26,548 nucleotides of DNA. Source: Chitinivibrionales bacterium. GTDB taxonomy: Bacteria; Fibrobacterota; Chitinivibrionia; Chitinivibrionales; FEN-1185. The DNA is taken from assembly GCA_028718065.1 (NCBI GenBank), contig JAQUMP010000001.1, positions 1 through 26,548 on the forward strand, in the 5' to 3' direction. This document shows, in pieces, positions 7,075 through 22,174 of the stretch. Both the position numbers and the translations under genes were made by a program. The notes beneath the pieces were generated by a model, which worked only from the letters and a program-made list of their open reading frames with translations, was not told the DNA's origin and ran no database searches. Position 1 is the stretch's first letter. Each line of letters starts with the position of its first letter.

Positions 7075-7422
7075 CTACAGGGCAACTTCTCCCCGTTCGC
7101 GCGTGCGGATGCGCATGGCGTCTTCGCAGGGCAAAATAAATATTTTGCCGTCCCCGATCTTTCCCTCGCTGCCGGTGCGCGCCGCGTCCGAAATCGCCGC
7201 GATGGTCGGCTCGGCGGACTTGTCGTCGACGGCGATTTCGATCTTGACTTTCCGGACGAAGTTTATCTGGTATTCATTGCCGCGATACACTTCGGTATGG
7301 CCGCGCTGGCGGCCGACCCCCTGGCAATCGCTGATGGTCATGCGGAAAAGGTCGATACGGCTGAGCGCCTCTTTAACGGCCTCCAAACGGGAAGGCTGTA
7401 TTATAGCCACTATAAATTTCAT
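7075..7422 (-). CDS. glnK: P-II nitrogen regulator (GlnK by linkage to amtB)
   Basis: GVGRQRGHTEVYRGNEY (T-loop, Tyr51 equivalent present), KVKIEIAV, GKIGDGKIFI and RIRT. Directly downstream of amtB. Confidence 0.93.
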   Translation of the reverse strand: MKFIVAIIQPSRLEAVKEALSRIDLFRMTISDCQGVGRQRGHTEVYRGNEYQINFVRKVKIEIAVDDKSAEPTIAAISDAARTGSEGKIGDGKIFILPCEDAMRIRTRERGEVAL

Positions 7423-7462
7423 GGTTTATTCCTTTTTGTTAAGAACAAATTACGGTTATCGT

Positions 7463-8821
7463 TCAGCCTGCATAGGCATGTTCGCCGTGCTGGCTCTCGT
7501 CCAGACCGGACATCTCTTCATCCACGCTTACGCGCAACCCGATCGTGTATTTGATCGCCAGGAAAATCAGGACCGTTACGATCGCGTCGTAGCCGATGGT
7601 CGTGGCCACCGCGATCGTCTGGATCCATAATTGTTTCGGATTGCCGTAGAGCAGGCCTTTGCCGGCGCTGTTGATGGCCGGATCGGCCAGAACGCCGGTC
7701 AAAAGCGCGCCGATGGTCCCGCCTACGCCGTGGATGCCGAAGGCATCGAGCGAATCGTCGTAGCCGAGTTTGTTCTTTACATAAGCAACCATGCAATAAG
7801 GCCCCACGCCCGCGGCGATCCCGATGATAATGGCCCCGCCCACGTTCACGAACCCCGCGGCCGGCGTTATGGTCACCAGTCCGGCGACCGCGCCCGAAGC
7901 CAGACCGAGCACCGTCGGCCGTTTGTTGACGATCCAATCGCATATCATCCAGGTAAGGGCTGCAACGGCCGTGGCCGTGTTGGTATTAATGAATGCGGCG
8001 GCAGCAAGGCCGTTCGCGGCGCAGGCCGAACCGGCATTAAATCCGAACCAGCCGAACCATAAAAGTCCTGCGCCCAGCACGGTAAACGGAAGATTGTTGG
8101 GCAGAAGCGTGGGCTCTTTGCGTTTGCCCAGCATCAGCGCTCCCACCAGCGCCGCGATACCGGCATTAATATGCACCACGGTGCCGCCGGCAAAATCCAG
8201 CGCTCCCATTTTTGCCAGGAATCCGTTGCCCCAGACCCAATGGGCAATCGGCAGATACACGAGCGTGAGCCACAGTACCGAAAACACTACCCACGCCGAA
8301 AACTTCATGCGCTCTATGTAGGCGCCGCTGGCCAGGGCCACGGTGATTGCCGCGAATGTCAACTGAAACACCACAAAAATGAATTCGGGCATGGTCATGG
8401 AAAGGGAGTTTACGGTAATGCCCTTCATCATCCATTTGTCAAGATTGCCGATGATGCCGTTCACATCCGTGCCGAACGCCATGGCGTACCCGTAAACAAC
8501 CCAGAGCACGCTCACGATGCAGAACGTTACAAACGACATGGCAATGGTGTTAAGAAGGTCTTTGCGCTTTGCCAGGCCGCCGTAAAAAAGCGCCAGGCCG
8601 GGCAAGGTCATGAGCATGACCAGCGCGGTGGCGACGATCATCCAGGCCGTATCGCCCGAATCAAGTTTCACGACCGGTGTCGCGGGGGCTGCCGCCGCAG
8701 GCGCCAACACCGACGCCACGGCCCCGGGCGTTGTATCTTTTTTGGTCGTGTCCTGGGCATACAACGCTGCCGCGCCGATAACAAACGCGACCCCGAGGCA
8801 AAGCCAAACAATCTTTCTCAT
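7463..8821 (-). CDS. amtB: Ammonium transporter AmtB
   Basis: DSGDTAW, FQLTFA, DFAGGTVVH and DDSLDAFGIHG (twin-His), WFGWFGFNAGS, C-terminal GLDESQHGEHAY, N-terminal signal peptide and a GGAGG RBS. Confidence 0.97.
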   Translation of the reverse strand: MRKIVWLCLGVAFVIGAAALYAQDTTKKDTTPGAVASVLAPAAAAPATPVVKLDSGDTAWMIVATALVMLMTLPGLALFYGGLAKRKDLLNTIAMSFVTFCIVSVLWVVYGYAMAFGTDVNGIIGNLDKWMMKGITVNSLSMTMPEFIFVVFQLTFAAITVALASGAYIERMKFSAWVVFSVLWLTLVYLPIAHWVWGNGFLAKMGALDFAGGTVVHINAGIAALVGALMLGKRKEPTLLPNNLPFTVLGAGLLWFGWFGFNAGSACAANGLAAAAFINTNTATAVAALTWMICDWIVNKRPTVLGLASGAVAGLVTITPAAGFVNVGGAIIIGIAAGVGPYCMVAYVKNKLGYDDSLDAFGIHGVGGTIGALLTGVLADPAINSAGKGLLYGNPKQLWIQTIAVATTIGYDAIVTVLIFLAIKYTIGLRVSVDEEMSGLDESQHGEHAYAG

Positions 8822-11908: not shown

Positions 11909-12541
11909 ATGATGAATAAAAGGACAAAAAGGGAAATACTGCTGGAAGGGCTTCTGGATGAATTACTATCACCGGGGGAGGACCGCTGGAGCATGCCGGA
12001 CGACCATCTCCTTACCTGCTGGCGCGAATACAATTGCAAAGTAAAACGCTGCCCCGTATATGGAAAGGAAAAAATACGGTGCTGGCAGGTTGTGGGGACC
12101 TTCTGCTCCCAAAAGCGGAAACCGTTGACTTTCAAGAAAAGGATGCGTACCTGCCTGAAATGCCGGGTATATCAAGCCGCGCTTGGAACCGCCGAATCAC
12201 GCTCGTACGAAACCCTTAACAATATCGTATTCATTTTGACCGGATTCAATCTCTCTTTTTTTAAAACGAGCAGGACCGTTTTACAAAAAAGCATCGAAGG
12301 CCTTCGCGCCCGATTTGTAGCTTGTGAACTGTTAAACGAGGTGGGAAAATCAATTACCGAACAGCATATTTCCGTCGGCTGCTCCTGGCGCCCGGAGCGA
12401 TTCTGCTACTGCCTTTACTTCCGGGTAAGCGCCTGTAAAAACTTTACAAAGCCGGTAATGTCTTTCTTAAAAAGCCGGGAAGCGCCTTTAAACTTTTTTA
12501 CCAGATGTGCCAATCTTTCGCTGTCTATTGCAAATCCGTAG
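11909..12541 (+). CDS. Cys-rich 'two-CW' domain protein; C-terminus doubtful because it overlaps the convergent toxin gene
   Basis: CWREYNCKVKRCPVYGKEKIRCWQVVGTFC...CLKCRVYQ (12017-12175; 7 Cys, two CW motifs). GGGGTG precedes ATG 11909/11912. The last 127 bp overlap 12415..12903 antisense. Confidence 0.6.
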   Translation: MMNKRTKREILLEGLLDELLSPGEDRWSMPDDHLLTCWREYNCKVKRCPVYGKEKIRCWQVVGTFCSQKRKPLTFKKRMRTCLKCRVYQAALGTAESRSYETLNNIVFILTGFNLSFFKTSRTVLQKSIEGLRARFVACELLNEVGKSITEQHISVGCSWRPERFCYCLYFRVSACKNFTKPVMSFLKSREAPLNFFTRCANLSLSIANP

Positions 12542-12903
12542 ATATTCCTTACAACATGCCTGAACCCCAAAAACTCGGTAAGCGCGGTTTCGGTTTTGCC
12601 GGAGATCACGGGTGGGCGGACGGATCCAAGTTCCAGGCTCATGGAGTGCAGCAAACGCCTGTGCCAATCGAACGAATCTGGCGTACCGCCGTTAATGTCA
12701 TCGGCGATTTTTTTGAAAATACGTTCGCATCCCGTATAGAAATTATGGAGTTTTAAAGCGACCGATTCTTCGTGGATTCGGCGCTTCTTCGCTTCGCGCG
12801 GAAGCGAGGCCCACGTTTCACCTAATTCGGCCGCCAATATATCAAGCTGGCGCAACTCATCCTTAATTTCCGCGATCAGATCGATAATCCTATCGTCGTT
12901 CAT
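12415..12903 (-). CDS. HEPN/HepT-like (DUF86-related) toxin
   Basis: LHNFYTGCERIF, WHRRLLHSM and FRHVVRNIY (RX4HXY position). Overlaps the upstream nucleotidyltransferase by 14 bp. Confidence 0.85.
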   Translation of the reverse strand: MNDDRIIDLIAEIKDELRQLDILAAELGETWASLPREAKKRRIHEESVALKLHNFYTGCERIFKKIADDINGGTPDSFDWHRRLLHSMSLELGSVRPPVISGKTETALTEFLGFRHVVRNIYGFAIDSERLAHLVKKFKGASRLFKKDITGFVKFLQALTRK

Positions 12904-13249
12904 AAAGGACCTTTCCTTTCGCGATCCGCGAGGTCATGAGCGGCGTGGCAGCCGCAGTCTCGATGAGATCCACGGGAAAACCGGCAGTTTGACACTGGAC
13001 AAGTGCGTTGAAATATTGATCCGGCTTTATCCCTTCTACCGCAAGGTCGATATCGGAGTTTGCTTTAAAACGACTGCCATGCAAAATGGAACCGACCAGG
13101 GTGACTTTTTTTGCGCCAAATTGATCGGCAAGAACGCGCGAAAGCTTTCGCGCACATCCGAGCGCTTTTTGCCTTCTTGATTCATTCATTACCCTGGTTT
13201 CTTCGTCGCGTTTTTTCCATGCTGCGCGGTATTTTTTCATCGAAATCAT
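12890..13249 (-). CDS. Minimal nucleotidyltransferase (MntA-like antitoxin)
   Basis: LVGSILHGSRFKANSDIDLAVEG (GS...DxD) and FPVDLI. Paired with the HEPN gene. Confidence 0.88.
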   Translation of the reverse strand: MISMKKYRAAWKKRDEETRVMNESRRQKALGCARKLSRVLADQFGAKKVTLVGSILHGSRFKANSDIDLAVEGIKPDQYFNALVQCQTAGFPVDLIETAAATPLMTSRIAKGKVLYERR

Positions 13250-13307
13250 AGTGGCTGCCTCTATGTTAAAATATATTATTGACCGTCTTCAGAAACGATT
13301 CCGTCTG

Positions 13308-13931
13308 TTACCGGCCCAGCACCCATGCCAAAATCACGTCCGCCTGTTTTGCCGCCGCAATACTTACCGCCGGACTCAGCGGTTTTAATTCCGCAGATAT
13401 TTCTGAAGTCTGATCGCCGATCATAAAAAAATTATCGCGGATTTTTTTAACTTTTATGCGGTCGCTGTCGCCGAACCCGGCCAGCCCGCTGGCGCAAACG
13501 ACGAATTTATCCGAATTAATAAAAGTTTCGGCTAGCATAGCTTTGCAACCAGCGGTGTCAAATGCCTCCACGATCACCGTGCAGGAAGCAAAGATGTTCC
13601 CGATATTTTGCTTGTCAAGCTTGAGCTGGTAGGTTTTTATGGAAACCGCAGGGTTAATCCGCAATAAACTTTCCTTGAGCGCCTGCACTTTCGGCAGTCC
13701 GATTTGATTTAAAAAATAAAACTGCCGGTTTAAGTTTGATTCTTCGACATTATCAAAATCTACAATTACGAATTTTTCAAAACCGCACCTGACCAAGTTC
13801 ATGGCGCAATTGGAGCCCAGACCGCCGGCGCCGGCAATGCCGATGCGCGTATTCCTGGTTTTTTTTATTTGTTCGGGAGTAAAATAGCGTTCCGAAACAT
13901 TATCAAATGAAAAATTATTCGGGCTGTTCAT
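13308..13931 (-). CDS. thiF: ThiS adenylyltransferase ThiF (short form)
   Basis: IGIAGAGGLGS, DFDNVEESNLNRQ and EAFD. ATG 13931 overlaps the thiH TGA (ATGA). Confidence 0.93.
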   Translation of the reverse strand: MNSPNNFSFDNVSERYFTPEQIKKTRNTRIGIAGAGGLGSNCAMNLVRCGFEKFVIVDFDNVEESNLNRQFYFLNQIGLPKVQALKESLLRINPAVSIKTYQLKLDKQNIGNIFASCTVIVEAFDTAGCKAMLAETFINSDKFVVCASGLAGFGDSDRIKVKKIRDNFFMIGDQTSEISAELKPLSPAVSIAAAKQADVILAWVLGR

Positions 13932-15034
13932 GATAGTTTGCTGTTCCAATCGTGCATCACGGGTTGAAAGCCGCGTGCGAGCAAATCGCAGTTTACCTCC
14001 TGCACACTGCGCGTATCGGCGATTTCAAACTGCCCCACCGAGGACGAATCCAGGTGGCCGCCAACGGCGGTGGATACGCCCGCCGACATTTTAGTAACGC
14101 CAAGCGAAACAATATTATTGCGAAAATCCGCCGATTCGCGGGTAGAAACCGTTAACCCAGCCGCAGGCAAAAACAGGCGCAGGGCAATGAGCATGCGCAC
14201 GAATTGCGTGTCGTTAACGTAAAACGGCTGCTTAAACTCCCCCACCAAAGGCCGCAGGCGCGGCAGCGACACCGAGAGTTCGGCAGCGGGATATTTTTTC
14301 CATAAATAGTCGGCATGCAGGGCGGCAAAAAATATTTCCGATACCGGCTGCGCCAGTCCCAAAAGCGGCCCGATGGTCACGGCGCGCATGTTCTCCTTTA
14401 ATGCGCGTTCGGGCGCATCTAAGCGAAAAACAAAATCCTCTTTGGGGCCACCCCGGTGATAACCTTTGTAAAGATATTCATCGTAGACTTCCTGATATAT
14501 GGTCAGGCCGTCGACCCCGTGGCCGATTAACTCTTTATACCCGTCACCTGCTAAAGGAAAAATCTCAAGGGCGATGGAGGCGAAATGTTCTCTTAAAATA
14601 TCCACAACATCCGCCAAATACCGCAAGGGCGTTTTCGCCGGCGCTTCGCCGGTTAAAACCAGAACATGACGCATGCCGGTTTGGGCGATCGCGCGCGCCT
14701 CTGATTCTATTTCGTCAAGGGATAGCGTGCGGCGGTCTATGGTTTGCCGGCAGCCGAAGGAACAATAGGGACAGACATTTTCGCAGTAGTTGGAAATATA
14801 GAGCGGTGTAAAGAGCCGGATCGTATTGCCGAATTGGCGCCGCGTAATCTTAAATGCGCGCCGGGCGATAGCTTCGCGGTAAGGTGCCGCGGCATCCCCG
14901 AGCAGGGTTAGAAAATCGAGCGGCGCGAGATTCTCTTTTGCCAATATAGCTTCTACACTTGTCGCGCTTACCTCCGTAAAAAAGCCGTTAAAATCAAACG
15001 AGCGCCACTGCTGCAAAACATCGTAAAAGCCCAT
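13928..15034 (-). CDS. thiH: 2-iminoacetate synthase ThiH (radical SAM)
   Basis: LFTPLYISNYCENVCPYCSF (CX3CX2C), YQEVY, SLPRLRP, STRES and MSAGVSTAVGG...QFEIADTRS. Confidence 0.95.
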   Translation of the reverse strand: MGFYDVLQQWRSFDFNGFFTEVSATSVEAILAKENLAPLDFLTLLGDAAAPYREAIARRAFKITRRQFGNTIRLFTPLYISNYCENVCPYCSFGCRQTIDRRTLSLDEIESEARAIAQTGMRHVLVLTGEAPAKTPLRYLADVVDILREHFASIALEIFPLAGDGYKELIGHGVDGLTIYQEVYDEYLYKGYHRGGPKEDFVFRLDAPERALKENMRAVTIGPLLGLAQPVSEIFFAALHADYLWKKYPAAELSVSLPRLRPLVGEFKQPFYVNDTQFVRMLIALRLFLPAAGLTVSTRESADFRNNIVSLGVTKMSAGVSTAVGGHLDSSSVGQFEIADTRSVQEVNCDLLARGFQPVMHDWNSKLS

Positions 15035-15042
15035 AGCGGCAA

Positions 15043-15840
15043 TTATTCCAAAAAACCGGTGAGCGGCGAAGAGGCAACGGCCGTATCGGATTGCGGCCCC
15101 AGACCGGCCAAAAAGGCCGCGCGGCCCGCCAGCACGGCATGATAAAAGGCCGCGGCCATGGCGACCGGACTATGGCTTGACGCAATGGCAGTATTGAGCA
15201 GCACGGCGGCGGCGCCCATTTCCATGGCGGCGGCCGCGTGCGAAGGCGCGCCGATGCCCGCATCCACGATAACCGGCAGGTCGATCTCTTCAATCAGCAG
15301 CCGAATCTGGTCAACTGTTTGTAAACCACGGTTGGACCCGATGGGCGCGCCCAGCGGCATGACGGCCGCAACGCCGATATCGGCCAGGCGCCGCGCGACC
15401 GAAAGGTCGGGATAGATATAGGGCAAAACAATGAATCCCTCTTTGACAAGCTCTTCCGCGGCCTTGATGGTCTCCACGCTGTCGGGCATAAGGTATTTGG
15501 CATCGTTAATGACTTCGATCTTTATCCAGGCGCCAAGATTCATGCCGCGGGCAAGGCGCGCGATGCGCACGGCCTCGGCGGCATTGCGCGCGCCGGAGGT
15601 GTTGGGCAGGATTATTTTTCCGGGGGGAATAAAATTTAGCACCGAATCGTGGGGTTTGTCAAAGTCGATGCGCCGCAGGGCCACGGTAATAATATCGCAT
15701 TGCGCGGCCGCAAGCACGGCGCTTATTAAGCGGTCGTCGCGATATTTTCCCGACCCGGTAATGAGGCGCGATTTTATTTTTTGCCCGGCAATAACTAAAA
15801 AATCTTCTTCGGATTCGGTTTTATTTTGCGGGTTGTTCAT
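15043..15840 (-). CDS. thiG: Thiazole synthase ThiG
   Basis: SRLITGSGKY, LPNTSGA, WIKIEV, MPLGAPIGSNRGL, VDAGIGAPSHAAAAMEMG and AVASSP. Confidence 0.97.
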   Translation of the reverse strand: MNNPQNKTESEEDFLVIAGQKIKSRLITGSGKYRDDRLISAVLAAAQCDIITVALRRIDFDKPHDSVLNFIPPGKIILPNTSGARNAAEAVRIARLARGMNLGAWIKIEVINDAKYLMPDSVETIKAAEELVKEGFIVLPYIYPDLSVARRLADIGVAAVMPLGAPIGSNRGLQTVDQIRLLIEEIDLPVIVDAGIGAPSHAAAAMEMGAAAVLLNTAIASSHSPVAMAAAFYHAVLAGRAAFLAGLGPQSDTAVASSPLTGFLE

Positions 15841-15860
15841 ATTTATTTATGTTATCAATA

Positions 15861-16061
15861 CTATCCGCCACCGACAAACCGGATAATTTCGATGGCGTCG
15901 TTTTCTTTAAGATTAGTGCTTCCGAATAATTCTTTGACGATTATATTCGTATTTATTTCTACCACGACATGGAGAGGATTAATGGATTTTTCTTGCAGTA
16001 ATTTGCTGATTGATTTCTCTCCATCAATATCGATTGTTTTTCCGTTGATTCTTAATTTCAT
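15861..16061 (-). CDS. thiS: Sulfur carrier protein ThiS
   Basis: 66 aa, MKLRING...VVVEIN...EIIRFVGGG with a C-terminal di-Gly. Confidence 0.95.
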   Translation of the reverse strand: MKLRINGKTIDIDGEKSISKLLQEKSINPLHVVVEINTNIIVKELFGSTNLKENDAIEIIRFVGGG

Positions 16062-16268: not shown

Positions 16269-17219
16269 TTAAGTCTTATAAATCTTAGAATTAGAGGGAA
16301 CTGATTTTGTAATCCAGGTATTCCCGCCGATAACGCTGCCCTTACCAATACGGGTTTTGCCGCCCAGAATCGTGGCATTGGAATAAATGACAACGTCGTC
16401 CTCGATGTCCGGATGGCGCTTGACCCCTTTTACCGGCTTGCCTCTTTTGTCAAGCGTAAACGACAGCGCGCCGAGCGTAACGCCCTGGTAGAGCTTTACA
16501 TTTGCGCCGATGGTAGTGGTTTCGCCGATCACCACGCCCGTGCCGTGGTCGATAAAAAACCGCGGTCCGACGGTAGCGCCGGGATGGATATCGATCCCGG
16601 TGCGGGAATGGGCGCGCTCGGACATGATGCGCGGAATGATGGGCACGTCTAATTTGTAAAGCAAGTGCGCGATGCGGTGCGTGGCGATGGCCTCGATGCA
16701 GGGGTAGCTCATGATGATTTCGTCGAGCGAGCCGGCCGCCGGATCGCCGTCGTAGGCGGCCTGGATGTCTTTGAGCAGGATCGCGCGGATTTGGGGCAGC
16801 GATTCGATCAGCTCCTGCAGGACCGCCTCGGCCCGGTCGGCGCACGTGCAGTTACGGCATGAATTGCGCGAGCAAAGATAACGAAAAACGGCCTTGATAT
16901 GCCCGCCGAGGGCAATGCTGATGTGCCGCAACTTGTCGCCCAGGAAAAAATTAATATCGTCTTTGGTGACTTTTTCGGTGCTGTAATAACCGGGGAACAG
17001 GACCGCGAGAATATCGTCGAGGATGTCGCAGATTTCACTGCGGCCGGACAAATTGAGCCCGTCCTCCGCCTGGGCATTTAAATGGCCCAGGACGCTGCGT
17101 TCGAGCTTGGCAACCACCCCGGGCAATTGGTGGTTGATCCAATGTTTGTTGCCGGACCCAACCATAGTATTGCCGGTTTTTTTTTTGCTTTCCCGGCCGA
17201 TCTTCCGTGATGGAACCAT
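16269..17219 (-). CDS. cysE: Serine O-acetyltransferase (CysE, EpsC-type long N-terminus)
   Basis: DIQAAYDGDPAA, SYPCIEAIATHRIAH, GIDIHPGA, FFIDHGTGVVIGET, LYQGVTLG and KRHP. AAAGG RBS before ATG 17219; alternative ATG at 17165. Confidence 0.93.
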   Translation of the reverse strand: MVPSRKIGRESKKKTGNTMVGSGNKHWINHQLPGVVAKLERSVLGHLNAQAEDGLNLSGRSEICDILDDILAVLFPGYYSTEKVTKDDINFFLGDKLRHISIALGGHIKAVFRYLCSRNSCRNCTCADRAEAVLQELIESLPQIRAILLKDIQAAYDGDPAAGSLDEIIMSYPCIEAIATHRIAHLLYKLDVPIIPRIMSERAHSRTGIDIHPGATVGPRFFIDHGTGVVIGETTTIGANVKLYQGVTLGALSFTLDKRGKPVKGVKRHPDIEDDVVIYSNATILGGKTRIGKGSVIGGNTWITKSVPSNSKIYKT

Positions 17220-17235: not shown

Positions 17236-18132
17236 CTAAAAAGAGGTGGTTTCGTGGAGAAATTTTATCCACTGGCTGAAAAATTCGTTGCGGTGGCTGC
17301 GCCAGCAGTTGACCGGGTTCTCCAAATCGTAATTTTGCGGCGGCGCCACATCGGCGCGACCCAGGTTCTTATCGCGTAAATATTCCTCGCGCAGACGGTG
17401 CTTGCTGTATTCCGGATGGCCCAGATGCATTATAAAACGGCCGTCGGCGCTTTCAAAAATAACATACCCCCCGCCGTGTTCGGAATAGGCCAGAAGGTTC
17501 ATGTTGCCCTTGTCGCGTTCGTGTTCCATTGCCTGGTCGGCAACGCCCGAATGACGGCTCTGGGGGCACCAGAAAACATCATCGAGGTCGCCGGTAATGC
17601 GATGCCCGCGACTAAGGTTTTTAGTCTCGAAGATGCCGAATATTTTCTCGGAATACATTGTTTTTTCGACTCCAAGGAATTTTGCGAGCGCCAGCGCGCC
17701 CCAGCACATGCCGAGCGTGGAAGGAATATTGTTGCGCGCGTACTTGAGAATGCGTTTGATTTCTTCCCAGTAGGAAACCTCTTCGAACGGGATCTCCTCC
17801 ACCGGCGCACCGGTAACGATCAGGCCGTCGATGTGGTCGTTTTTGATGGCGTCCTCAAAGTTGACATAATGCTTATTTAAATGCGCCTGGTCGCTGCTGG
17901 AATAGGTGTGATTTTCGAGCCGGATAAAAACCGGTTCGATCTGCAGGACCGAACGGCTCAGCGGGTACAACAGGTTAAATTCGTAGGTTTCGGCCTTCGG
18001 CATGATATTTAAAATGCCGATGTGCAACGCGCGGATGTCTTCGCGCAGCGCCTGTTCATGATCCATGCACAGCACGCGGTTCTGCTCGAGTGCGGCCTTG
18101 GCATGATAATCTTTTGGAATAACTATGGCCAT
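17236..18132 (-). CDS. metA: Homoserine O-acyltransferase MetA family, probably acetyl-CoA-specific
   Basis: ILNIMP, DGLIVTGAPVE, GMCWGA (catalytic Cys), PQSRH and GHPEY. GAPVE carries Glu at the specificity position (Glu in acetyltransferases, Gly in E. coli succinyltransferase). Confidence 0.92.
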   Translation of the reverse strand: MAIVIPKDYHAKAALEQNRVLCMDHEQALREDIRALHIGILNIMPKAETYEFNLLYPLSRSVLQIEPVFIRLENHTYSSSDQAHLNKHYVNFEDAIKNDHIDGLIVTGAPVEEIPFEEVSYWEEIKRILKYARNNIPSTLGMCWGALALAKFLGVEKTMYSEKIFGIFETKNLSRGHRITGDLDDVFWCPQSRHSGVADQAMEHERDKGNMNLLAYSEHGGGYVIFESADGRFIMHLGHPEYSKHRLREEYLRDKNLGRADVAPPQNYDLENPVNCWRSHRNEFFSQWIKFLHETTSF

Positions 18133-18314: not shown

Positions 18315-18749
18315 TTAGATTGAATAATTTTCAAGCGAGGTTTTTTGTTCCATTTCAAGCAGATCGGCAAGCGTAAGGGCGGTTAACACGGCCTTTTGCG
18401 CATTATGCAGTTTTTCCCATACCGTGCGGGCCACACAATTGGAGGCGCGGTCGCACAGGGTGGGATTTTCCACGCACTCAACCGGCGAAATCGACCCTTC
18501 CAGAGCGCCGACGATTTCGTACAGCGTTATGCTCGCAGGAGGCAGGGCCAGTGAAAATCCGCCGGAAGCGCCGCGCACGGTCGTTATCAGCCGCGCCGAT
18601 TTGAGCGCAATTAAAATATTTTCCAGATACCCGTGGGAAATACCCTGGGTTTTGGAAATGTCCTTGCGCTTGCGGGCGCTGCGGCCGTAAACCTTGGCGA
18701 TTTCGACCATCGCCCGCAGGCCGTACCGGCACTTGGTGGAAAGTTTCAT
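18315..18749 (-). CDS. Rrf2-family regulator (CymR/IscR-like) with three Cys
   Basis: MKLSTKCRYGLRAM, YLENIL, VRGASGGF and ECVENPTLCDRASNC. Lies inside the Cys/Met cluster and ends -LENYSI. Confidence 0.92.
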   Translation of the reverse strand: MKLSTKCRYGLRAMVEIAKVYGRSARKRKDISKTQGISHGYLENILIALKSARLITTVRGASGGFSLALPPASITLYEIVGALEGSISPVECVENPTLCDRASNCVARTVWEKLHNAQKAVLTALTLADLLEMEQKTSLENYSI

Positions 18750-18763
18750 GGTCCCCTGCTTGG

Positions 18764-20059
18764 TTAATGCGCTTTTTGTAAACCTTCATCCAGCGCCGCG
18801 ATAAGATCGTCGATATGCTCCAACCCGATCGAAAGACGCACCAGGTCGGGCGTCAGGCCGCCCTGCCGCTGCTGTTCCTCGCTTAATTGCGAATGGGACG
18901 TACTTGACGGATGCAGAATAAGGCTTTCGGCGTCGCCGACGTTTGCAAGGTGCGAAAAGAGGCCGATGGAATCGATTAGTTTTACCGCGGCCGCGTACCC
19001 GCCTTTAACGCCAAAGACTACCATGCCGCCAAATCCGCGCTTAAGGTACTTGCTCGCGACCGGATAGGCGGGATCGGAGGGCAACCCCGGATAACGCACC
19101 CAAGCGACCTGGCGGTGCCCCTTTAAAAATTGGGCGACGGCAAGCGCATTGCTGCAATGACGCTCCATGCGCACCGGCAGGGATTCCACGCCCTGAAGCA
19201 GGATCCAGGCATTGTCCGGTGAAATGCAGGCCCCCAGATTGCGAAGCGGTACGGTACGCAGGCGCAGCGCAAAGGCGATGGGCGCGAGCGGGGCCGGCAG
19301 ATCGGAGGCCCAGCGCAGACCGTGATAGTTATTGTCCGGTTCTGTAAAGAGCGTAAATTTTTTGTCCTGCCAGTTAAAATTTCCGGCATCGGTCACCACG
19401 CCGCCGATCGCGGCGCCATGCCCGCCGATCCATTTTGTAGCGGAATTAATAACGATATTGGCGCCATGCTCGATGGTCCGGAGCAAATAGGGCGTGGTAA
19501 AAGTGGCATCGACGACAAGCGGGAGATTATGCTTGCGCGCGATCGCCGCCACCCCGGCGATATCGGTAAAATCCAGGCTGGGATTGCCGATGGTTTCGAT
19601 AAAAACAAGGCGGGTTTTATCATTGATGGCGCTCTCGTAACTTTTTAAATCGGCGTGATTTACAAAACGGGTTGTAATGTTAAATTGCGGCAAAATTGCC
19701 TCAAACATGGTATAGGTGCCGCCATACAGGTTGCCGGCGGAAACGATTTCGTCCCCGGCCCTGGCGATGGTAATGACGGTGTTGAATATCGCCGCGGTGC
19801 CCGAAGCCTGCGCCACGGAGGCCAGGCCCCCTTCGAGTTGACTGATGCGCTTCTCCAGGACATCGTGGGTGGGGTTCATAAGACGGGTATAAATATTACC
19901 CAGTTCCTTAAGCGCAAAAAGATTGGCGGCATGCTCGGTGTTTTTGAACAGATAGGAGGTCGTGCGATAGACCGGCACCCCGCGGGAAAGCGTGTCCGGC
20001 TCAACCACCTGGCCGCCGTGAACCGCTAAAGTTTCGAAACGGTACTTGTCGTTACTCAT
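18764..20059 (-). CDS. metY: O-acetylhomoserine aminocarboxypropyltransferase / sulfhydrylase
   Basis: [40 protein letters not shown] (PLP Lys), HLANVGD and RLSIGLEH. Start placed at ATG 20059 (MSNDK) to avoid overlapping cysK. Confidence 0.93.
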
Positions 20060-20108
20060 GTTTTGCTCGCTTTCATCGTTGATAACGTTTGTAAATGCAA
20101 TACTCTTA

Positions 20109-21044
20109 TTAAGCAAGTGCGGCGTCGTCGAACAACCAGGTGCTTAAATAGCGTTCGCCGGAATCGGGCAACACAACCACGATTAATTTTTCGGCGTTTT
20201 CGGGCCGGTTGGCAACCTGGATCGCCGCCCATAGCGCCGCTCCGGAAGAAATGCCGACTAAAAGACCTTCCTGCCGAGCCGCCGCCCGCGCCAAATTGGC
20301 GGCATCGTCGTCTTTTACCGTAATTATTTCGTCGATAAGGTCGCGCCGTAAAACCCCCGGAATAAAGCCCGCTCCAATGCCCTGAATTTTGTGCGGCCCC
20401 GCCTGTCCGCCCGAAATCACGGGTGAACTGGCAGGTTCAATCGCAATCGTTTTTATCGACGCTTTTTTACTCTTTAATACTTCGCTTACGCCCGTAATCG
20501 TGCCGCCCGTACCAACGCCGGCAATAAAAATATCTACCGTACCATCGGTGTCGTTCCAAATTTGCTCAGCCGTGGTTTTCCGGTGGATTTCCGGATTGCT
20601 CGGATTATTAAATTGTTGGGGGATAAATGCGCCTTTTATTTCTTTGGCCAGGGCATCGGCTTTTTCGACGGCGCCGCGCATTCCCTTTGGCCCCTCGGTT
20701 AAAACCAACTCCGCGCCGAATATTTTAAGCAGCTTGCGGCGTTCCAGACTCATAGTCTCGGGCATTGTTAGGATCAGCCGGTATCCTTTAACGGCACATA
20801 CGTACGCCAGCGCAATCCCGGTATTGCCGCTGGTTGGTTCAATAATAACACTATTTTTATTAATGCGTCCATTTGCCTCCGCTTCCTCAATCATGGCAAG
20901 GCCGATGCGGTCTTTAACACTCGAAAGCGGGTTAAAAAATTCAAGCTTGGCAGCGATGATTGCTTTGCCGCCCTGGTTGAGCTTGTTGATTTTAACCATC
21001 GGCGTTTTTCCGATAAGCTTAGTAATGTCAGAGGCGATTTTCAT
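20109..21044 (-). CDS. cysK: Cysteine synthase A (O-acetylserine sulfhydrylase)
   Basis: [16 protein letters not shown] (PLP Lys), [37 protein letters not shown] and DSGERYLST. Confidence 0.97.
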
Positions 21045-21084
21045 GATGTTCCTCGCTCAGATTAAAGTGATATATTTTAACCCT

Positions 21085-21348
21085 TCAGATTCCGGCGCCT
21101 TCCACAAAGAACAAGGAGAGTTCTTTAAAAACCAGCTCCTCGTCTTTGCCTTCTACCTGAAGTTTAACTTTATCTTCGTGACCTACCTCAAGCATTAACA
21201 ATTCAATAACAGAGCTCCCGCTTGCACATTTATCATCATTGCAGAGAGTTACTTTGGATTCAAATTGCTTTGTGGTATCGGCAATTTTAGCGGCAGCCCG
21301 CAAATGCAACCCGTTTTGATCTTTAATTTTTACGATTCTTTGCTTCAT
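21085..21348 (-). CDS. HPr-family phosphocarrier-like protein with a C-terminal GAGI tail
   Basis: From ATG 21348 (87 aa), NGLHLR places His at residue 15 and GSSVIELLML places Ser at residue 46, matching HPr numbering. EGKDEE is present, and the protein ends FFVEGAGI (codons checked). Confidence 0.9.
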   Translation of the reverse strand: MKQRIVKIKDQNGLHLRAAAKIADTTKQFESKVTLCNDDKCASGSSVIELLMLEVGHEDKVKLQVEGKDEELVFKELSLFFVEGAGI

Positions 21349-21377
21349 AAATATTGTCAACTTTGTTTATTAACAAT

Positions 21378-21406
21378 AATATATTATAATTATTAAAAAC
21401 TGTCAA
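21378..21406 (-). promoter_or_regulatory. Candidate sigma70 promoter for the HPr-cysK cluster
   Basis: Minus strand TTGACA (21406-21401), 17 nt spacer, TATATT (21383-21378), about 30 nt before ATG 21348. The region is very AT-rich, so a chance match is possible. Confidence 0.6.
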
Positions 21407-21955: not shown

Positions 21956-22030
21956 GCGAGAGTAGCTCAGGGGTAGAGCTCTACCTTGCCAAGGTAGCTG
22001 TCGCGAGTTCAAATCTCGTCTCTCGCTCCA
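21956..22030 (+). tRNA. tRNA-Gly(GCC)
   Basis: GCGAGAG/CTCTCGC acceptor stem, CTACC-TTGCCAA-GGTAG anticodon arm, GTTCAAATC T-loop and encoded CCA. Confidence 0.97.

Positions 22031-22100: not shown

Positions 22101-22174
<74 letters not shown>

Follow-up and report, generated by a model that had tools for sequence, protein, structure and literature searches.

The O-acetylserine sulfhydrylase CysK, together with O-acetylserine, is a textbook sensor of sulfur status, and the phosphotransferase system (PTS) is a textbook sensor of carbon and nitrogen status. The known 'moonlighting' partners of CysK are CysE, CymR, CdiA-CT and EGL-9. Small proteins of the HPr type are in turn known to regulate non-PTS proteins, including glycogen phosphorylase, Rsd, FruR and CcpA (with Crh or HPr-Ser-P), and NPr of the PTS-Ntr branch is a further example. 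To our knowledge, no physical link between the PTS and CysK has been described. Here we analyze a 26,548-nucleotide stretch (hereafter the window) of contig JAQUMP010000001.1 from a Chitinivibrionales bacterium, in which a sulfur operon begins with a gene for an HPr paralog that ends in FFVEGAGI and is followed directly by cysK. The original prediction for this locus, made from the sequence alone, was that the HPr is a dedicated ligand of CysK. Docking of a C-terminal tail in CysK is an established mechanism; an HPr ligand and a PTS-to-sulfur link would be new, and the literature that we searched on HPr/ptsH with CysK and on CysK moonlighting partners contained no description of a CysK-linked HPr.

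In the described complexes, a loop of Thr, Asn and Thr residues and a Gln of CysK hold the terminal carboxylate of the docked peptide, and O-acetylserine competes for the site (bioRxiv 10.1101/2024.09.19.614015; PMC5562914). Similar to the CysE-CysK complex of E. coli and Salmonella, where the CysE tail reads FEYGDGI, the window combines a predicted flexible tail, a G-x-G-I end and a partner encoded together with cysK, and binding would be competitive with O-acetylserine (PMC5562914). Unlike in that complex, the carrier of the tail is an 87-residue PTS phosphocarrier fold rather than an acetyltransferase, the tail is much shorter, and CysE itself has lost the Ile in the window's order (0 of 29 orthologs, whose ends are unconserved). 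The CymR-CysK system of B. subtilis and S. aureus, with the CymR tail GYMFYI, is matched by an Rrf2 regulator with an aromatic-x-Ile tail in the same operon (ENYSI in the window), and CysK would act here too as sensor and co-regulator (bioRxiv 10.1101/2024.09.19.614015). It differs from our locus in that a third, HPr-type tail bearer is present here, the Rrf2 protein scores below the CymR cut-off, and the complex is a putative one in these phyla. CdiA-CT of E. coli 536 is likewise a small protein other than CysE that anchors a CysE-mimicking Ile tail in the CysK cleft while its body packs on CysK (PMC5562914), but CdiA-CT is a delivered toxin, and the tailed HPr belongs to a housekeeping operon and is vertically conserved across phyla. 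Finally, the regulatory HPrs share with the proposed system an HPr fold that binds an enzyme or regulator and is switched by phosphorylation at His15 or Ser46. In those cases the partner binds the His15 face of a general HPr, whereas the present protein is a dedicated paralog with an additional, putative docking peptide, and its proposed target is sulfur assimilation.

The HPr gene encodes a protein that exceeds the cut-offs of both PF00381 (PTS-HPr; 73.3 bits, cut-off 23) and TIGR01003 (72.6 bits, cut-off 47.9). His15 lies within the motif GLHLRAA with Ala in place of Pro18, Arg17 and Ser46 are present, and two cysteines, Cys36 and Cys41, precede Ser46. The open reading frame (ORF) and both family models thus confirmed the protein as originally described, including its length, these residues and its C-terminus. 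An AlphaFold2 model built from a 42-sequence alignment adopted the HPr fold (predicted local distance difference test, pLDDT, 87.8), with the open-faced beta-sandwich (beta-alpha-beta-beta-alpha-beta-alpha) that characterizes the family. Foldseek matched the model to 3le1 (TM score 0.86, root-mean-square deviation 1.1 Å) and also to 1poh, and its matches include the HPr complexes 9s8k, 4xwj, 7x7h and 1zvv. Tail residues 85–87 have pLDDT values below 50, and the short tail is predicted to be flexible, as a docking peptide should be. Within the genome, a C-terminal Ile occurs in 4.4% of ORFs of at least 150 codons and G-x-G-I in 1 of 4750, so the tail of the window HPr is beyond chance.

Two known types of non-sugar HPr were considered for this protein. 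Crh, in which His15 is replaced by Gln and only Ser46 is functional, was ruled out because His15 is present and invariant. The NPr (PtsO) equivalog NF008146 was not passed (44.8 bits against a cut-off of 119). Elsewhere the genome contains two further HPr paralogs, three EI-N matches (the N-terminal domain of enzyme I, EI), one HPr kinase (HPrK) gene and three genes of the EIIA-Ntr type. One of the additional paralogs (contig C509; locus L003, 1486–1791, minus strand) is of the HARVA type, is 34% identical, ends in LFAPDAG and adjoins a PhoU-like gene, a hint of nutrient-specific HPr branches.

The window HPr is not a one-off. A word-indexed search with the single sequence returned no match beyond the window HPr itself, and the family became visible only through a full HMMER scan over 1.8 billion cluster representatives followed by profile searches. 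Among the best 150 HMMER matches, about 45 are about 87 amino acids long and end in G-x-G-I; the profile searches raised the count to 188 proteins of 85–92 amino acids with this end. Members are 31–49% identical to the window HPr and come, by their source names, from Omnitrophota, Aureabacteria and Chitinispirillaceae; the protein of one relative in the window's order is 100% identical to an NCBI protein labelled Chitinispirillaceae. In three alignments of tailed HPrs, residues G13, H15, S46, L53, G67, G84, G86 and I87 show no variation, and R17 is kept in about 90% of the proteins. The tail is present on 113 of 114 profile matches, the remaining one having extra residues after it, and on none of about 105 ordinary HPr representatives. 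Compared with ordinary HPr, Leu16 replaces Ala, Val18 replaces Pro and Lys45 is lost, giving a signature of HLRVA instead of HARPA around His15 together with the C-terminus [FL]-x-[DE]-G-x-G-I.

We also built a tree without the last seven residues, using 49 non-redundant tailed sequences. Forty-five of these fell in one clade, albeit with weak clade support, and the tailed and untailed labels required 8 changes on the tree compared with 41 in shuffled controls. Thus, on the sequence comparisons, the tailed HPrs form a distinct, widespread and undescribed subfamily, carried in the databases under no more than the name 'HPr family phosphocarrier protein'. A second trait of the group is a Cys-rich beta2-beta3 hairpin adjoining Ser46 (alignment positions 33–46). 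At least three cysteines (C36, C39 and C45, often as CxxC) were found in this hairpin in 18 of 44 non-redundant tailed HPrs versus 1 of 99 other HPrs, while the window protein has two. As judged from the alignments, the Cys-rich hairpin is a recurrent trait of the subfamily and the Cys36 and Cys41 positions themselves are not conserved.

The genes for tailed HPrs recur in sulfur operons whose internal order varies (HPr-cysK-metY-Rrf2 in the window). All eight loci of relatives in the window's order, drawn from seven genomes, read cysK-metY-HPr, with Rrf2 directly next in most; two of these genomes contain two separate cysK-metY-tailed-HPr operons each. The Omnitrophota order is Rrf2, porin, sulfate ABC transporter, HPr, cysK and cysH/cysD/cysN. 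A profile search of genome contigs with a tight Omnitrophota alignment found 9 loci, and cysK immediately follows the tailed HPr in 7 of 7 Omnitrophota species-representative genomes where the available sequence was sufficient. In a fourth lineage the order is cysK-HPr, next to an Rrf2 gene in convergent orientation, and Aureabacteria have Rrf2-DUF2292-DUF3034-metY-cysK-HPr-tusA. The cysK equivalog cut-off was passed by the tested neighbours of tailed HPrs. Across these five gene orders, the tailed HPr is always accompanied by cysK and an Rrf2 gene, but not always by metY. As a control, the 1.5 kb around each of about 24 ordinary HPr loci in the window's order were free of cys and met genes, and an ordinary HPr gene lies beside ptsI in three of five Omnitrophota genomes. 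The comparison that the original prediction had called for speaks for it: HPrs ending in G-x-G-I share an operon with cysK in all five arrangements, and the ordinary HPrs do not.

The candidate receptor is a CysK with an intact carboxylate-binding loop. The window CysK scored 455 bits against the TIGR01139 equivalog (cut-off 351) and 293 bits against the cysM model, which is under the cysM cut-off, and no second cysK was found in the 80%-complete metagenome-assembled genome. It aligns with M. tuberculosis CysK1 (2q3b) over 309 residues and keeps the motifs SVKDR, TSGNTG and QQF. The S. aureus counterparts of the TSGNTG loop and of the QQF glutamine bind the carboxylate of docked peptides (bioRxiv 10.1101/2024.09.19.614015; PMC5562914). 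Tails of the required kind are also found on other proteins. CysE of E. coli MG1655 ends in FEYGDGI, the same G-x-G-I pattern as in the tailed HPrs, the EpsC-type CysE of two clusters with a divergent tailed HPr (the HLTPS type, discussed below) ends in FENGSGI, and the DUF2292 protein of the Aureabacteria cluster ends in EKGGGI. Because the ends of HPr, EpsC-type CysE and DUF2292 agree, three unrelated folds, one of them the canonical CysK partner, converge on one tail. In the window's order, where CysE is without a terminal Ile, the CysK pocket is therefore not claimed by CysE.

Additional Ile ends occur among sulfur-assimilation proteins. The genome's own CysN (contig C138, 5123–6976) ends in DYMI, CysN and CysA of Omnitrophota in EYEI, and a DUF2061 protein in DYEI; in the Aureabacteria cluster, DUF3034 ends in KYEI beside the GGGI of DUF2292. 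These ends suggest that CysK may read many C-terminal tails of sulfur-assimilation proteins.

One such tail, overlooked in the original prediction, belongs to the Rrf2 regulator of the operon. The best equivalog for this protein is CymR, at 110 bits against a cut-off of 195. Of 29 Rrf2 orthologs in the window's order, 26 end in [YF]-x-I, irrespective of the presence of a tailed HPr, with the consensus [N/D]-[Y/F]-x-I, and Rrf2 proteins of the other phyla (27–39% identical) end in NYVI, DYVI, DYTI or SYAI. On this conservation across phyla, the Rrf2 end is a CymR-like candidate CysK-docking tail. The comparison with CymR itself rests on a described tail, YMFYI, which the original prediction had cited for B. 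subtilis; the verified one is that of S. aureus CymR (bioRxiv 10.1101/2024.09.19.614015).

An operator-like motif directly follows the -10 hexamer of the operon promoter. The motif nGTTnATAAACAnnnTnnACA, with the core palindrome GTTTATAAAC, recurs at the corresponding position in 7 of 8 cysK promoters of relatives, and the TTGACA-17-TATATT hexamers and spacing are also found upstream of cysK in the relatives' operons. It is probably the site of the Rrf2 (CymR-like) repressor. Because Rrf2 has its own conserved -[YF]-x-Ile tail, competition for CysK is the more likely logic of the system. On the simplest model, a sensor of the CymR/CysK type would be common to the whole order, some lineages having added an HPr able to compete for the same pocket.

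The original prediction further held that PTS or HPrK phosphorylation would be passed on by the HPr, and only the first of these inputs fits the distribution of the enzymes. Of 41 genomes in the window's order, 4 yielded an HPrK, among them 3 of the 8 with a tailed HPr; four genomes without it are at least 94% complete. None of 5 Omnitrophota carrier genomes yielded one. EI-N turned up in 40 of the 41, at 1–7 paralogs per genome, and in each of the 5 from Omnitrophota, so that EI was found in all tailed-HPr carrier genomes examined. Absence from most carrier genomes rules out HPrK as the general kinase of tailed HPrs. Because HPrK is missing from most carriers and EI is found in every one, phosphorylation of His15 by an EI paralog is the likelier control. 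In HPr structures the C-terminus probably lies close to the His15/Arg17 centre, and docking and phosphorylation would then depend on each other.

Taken together, we propose that the tailed HPr is a regulatory ligand of CysK and not a component of sugar transport. In the manner of the CysE, CymR and CdiA-CT tails, its tail would place the last Ile, with its carboxylate, in the active site of CysK. Docked there, it would occupy the O-acetylserine site, from which O-acetylserine would be expected to expel it, and would be in competition with the -[YF]-x-Ile end of the Rrf2 repressor from the same operon. The phosphorylation state of His15, set by transfer from phosphoenolpyruvate (PEP) through EI to HPr, would gate docking. 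Carbon and energy status would in this way feed into CysK activity, into Rrf2-dependent repression of the cys/met operon, or into both. We infer each of these elements, namely docking, competition with Rrf2, control by phosphorylation and the direction of regulation, from genes and their products. Docking of the HPr tail in the CysK active site we consider reasonably probable.

Several observations weigh against this proposal. Only 4–6 residues extend beyond the last structured element of a tailed HPr, so that docking would require the HPr body to rest on the edge of the CysK cleft. The G-x-G-I end is without the aromatic residues at P2 and P3 that give isolated peptides high affinity, so that contacts between the HPr body and CysK would be needed. 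A subgroup in which Arg17 is replaced by Thr (HLTPS; loci L056, 5403–5666, and L100, 10001–10264) lies in sulfur clusters with no PALP gene within 5–10 kb; these clusters combine nitrogenase-like genes (Oxidored_nitro, NifH-like, radical SAM) with ThiS-MetY-ThiF-DsrE-TusA-JAB-sulfite reductase. One member ending in GEGI has no sulfur gene at all within 10 kb, and its syntenic counterpart elsewhere is a relative without the tail. Another tailed HPr gene and a DUF3034-metY-PALP cluster are divergently oriented, about 3 kb apart. The link of tailed HPrs is thus to sulfur clusters generally, and not always to cysK. With regard to phosphorylation, the lack of HPrK in most carrier genomes leaves the invariant Ser46 without an explanation, and at position 45 the Lys usual in ordinary HPr gives way to Ser or Cys. 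The Arg17 to Thr change in one subgroup speaks against universal phosphotransfer in the subfamily.

The exceptions to cysK linkage raise the question of whether the tail is read by a different sulfur partner, such as MetY, Rrf2, a sulfurtransferase (TusA or rhodanese) or a PDZ-like reader of C-termini, which the HPr would then regulate. Gene order gives this some encouragement, since the HPr gene lies between metY and Rrf2, and does not adjoin cysK, in relatives from the window's order; the HLTPS subgroup sits beside ThiS-MetY-ThiF-TusA genes without cysK, and tusA comes directly after HPr in Aureabacteria. However, metY is absent and cysK present in most Omnitrophota loci and in the locus with cysK-HPr and convergent Rrf2, and the HPr tail matches the tails of CysE. 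CysK is moreover the only enzyme of the pathway known to read C-terminal Ile tails (bioRxiv 10.1101/2024.09.19.614015; PMC5562914), and we regard a different receptor as improbable. Slightly less probable again is that the protein serves as a plain phosphocarrier in a regulatory branch resembling PTS-Ntr, its tail a lineage quirk and its sulfur linkage a matter of co-regulation or of a phosphotransfer target. Retention of His15 and, mostly, of Arg17 would suit such a role, as would the 1–7 EI paralogs and several HPr paralogs in these genomes, the branch suggested by the paralog beside the PhoU-like gene, and the nesting of tail-less relatives within the tailed clade. A quirk, though, leaves unexplained why a disordered G-x-G-I is invariant across phyla while the protein bodies are 30–40% identical, and why it converges with the CysE and DUF2292 tails of the same clusters.

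The Gly-rich end and the ThiF, JAB, ThiS and MetY genes of some clusters could also bring to mind a sulfur-carrier-like protein, whose Ile would be trimmed and whose Gly end would be adenylated and thiocarboxylated to serve as donor to MetY or CysK in the manner of HcyS or CysO. We consider this highly implausible. It would leave the invariant His15 and Ser46 without a role, and in clusters that include ThiF and JAB, a separate ThiS with a terminal run of Gly, or a ThiS-MetY fusion, is already encoded; the thiF gene of the window likewise sits in a thi operon with its own ThiS ending in GGG. Outright identity with a sulfur carrier (ThiS, MoaD, CysO or HcyS) was rejected, because HPr does not have the beta-grasp fold, G-x-G-I is not GG, and separate ThiS genes are present. 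Thus, the comparative evidence for a CysK ligand is strong, yet docking of the tailed HPr on CysK is deduced from sequence and HPrK input does not hold in general, and the original interpretation is therefore only partly supported. In favour of a dedicated ligand stand the existence of the subfamily, its invariant tail, the linkage to cysK and the CysE-like end; the subgroups without cysK stand against it.

The operon of the window consists of HPr, cysK, metY, Rrf2, metA and cysE, all on the minus strand (Table 1). A promoter-like site precedes the HPr gene, which therefore heads the cluster as originally proposed, and the 40-bp distance from the HPr gene to a bona fide cysK (TIGR01139) was likewise upheld. 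No further PTS gene emerged when all large ORFs of the window were scanned with Pfam, again in agreement with the earlier observation. No riboswitch or other Rfam family was detected upstream of the operon, the only Rfam matches being two tRNAs. For metY, the listed TTG start overlaps cysK; the true start is probably the ATG at 20059, giving 431 amino acids, as the relatives' proteins have 429–430. The cysE gene scored 155.8 bits against NF041874 (cut-off 150), is the sole cysE found in the genome, and encodes an N-terminal extension of roughly 130 amino acids.

Table 1. Coordinates of the tailed-HPr operon and of neighbouring features in the window.
Feature	Position	Strand	Remarks
Promoter-like site	21378–21406	-	TTGACA-17-TATATT, 11/12 matches; upstream of HPr gene
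Operator-like motif TGTTAATAAACAAAGTTGACA	21355–21375	-	directly after -10 hexamer; putative Rrf2 site
Tailed HPr paralog gene	21085–21348	-	87-amino-acid ORF
His15 codon	21304–21306	-	tailed HPr gene
Hairpin codons	about 21211–21252	-	beta2-beta3 hairpin of HPr
Ser46 codon	21211–21213	-	tailed HPr gene
Codons of C-terminal F-V-E-G-A-G-I	21088–21108	-	proposed CysK-docking peptide
Tailed HPr stop codon	21085–21087	-	
HPr-cysK spacer	21045–21084	-	40 bp, with GAGGAA ribosome-binding site
cysK (O-acetylserine sulfhydrylase A)	20109–21044	-	TIGR01139; ATG at 21044; proposed tail receptor
metY (O-acetylhomoserine sulfhydrylase)	18764–20116	-	listed start TTG at 20116
Rrf2-family regulator, CymR-like	18315–18749	-	PF02082; ends -ENYSI; second candidate CysK-docking tail
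metA (homoserine O-acyltransferase)	17236–18132	-	
cysE (EpsC-type serine O-acetyltransferase)	16269–17219	-	NF041874; ends -KIYKT, without docking Ile
tRNA genes (two)	21956–22027; 22101–22171	+	
thiS-thiG-thiH-like-thiF operon	12415–16061 (region)	-	thiS 15861–16061
HepT/MNT-type toxin-antitoxin pair	12415–13249		
glnK-amtB pair and GAF/sigma-54 activator	7075–8821	-	

Outside the operon, the two tRNA genes lie between it and an upstream gene for a Calx-beta protein. The thi operon is directly downstream of cysE, the toxin-antitoxin pair lies past the thi operon, and the glnK-amtB pair is accompanied by the activator gene.

A broader reading, which we put forward tentatively and regard as rather doubtful in its full form, is that in several uncultivated phyla CysK acts as a hub that reads many C-terminal Ile tails. 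The candidate tails are those of CymR-like Rrf2, tailed HPr, CysN, CysA, DUF2292/YezD, DUF3034 and DUF2061. Tailed HPr would supply the PEP-dependent phosphotransferase input to this hub and, depending on His15 phosphorylation, would compete with the repressor tail, so that carbon and energy status would gate the sulfur regulon. The Cys-rich hairpin, present in about 40% of lineages, would add sensing of thiols, sulfide or redox state.

Peptides that mimic CysK-docking tails are under development as inhibitors, and a natural G-x-G-I ligand on a folded scaffold bears on that work. If the proposal is true, tailed HPrs would extend the few known CysK partners by a new class, and a dedicated HPr paralog plugging into CysK would be a direct link between the PTS and CysK. 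It would also account for the presence of an HPr gene in sulfur operons where the organism lacks a sugar PTS.

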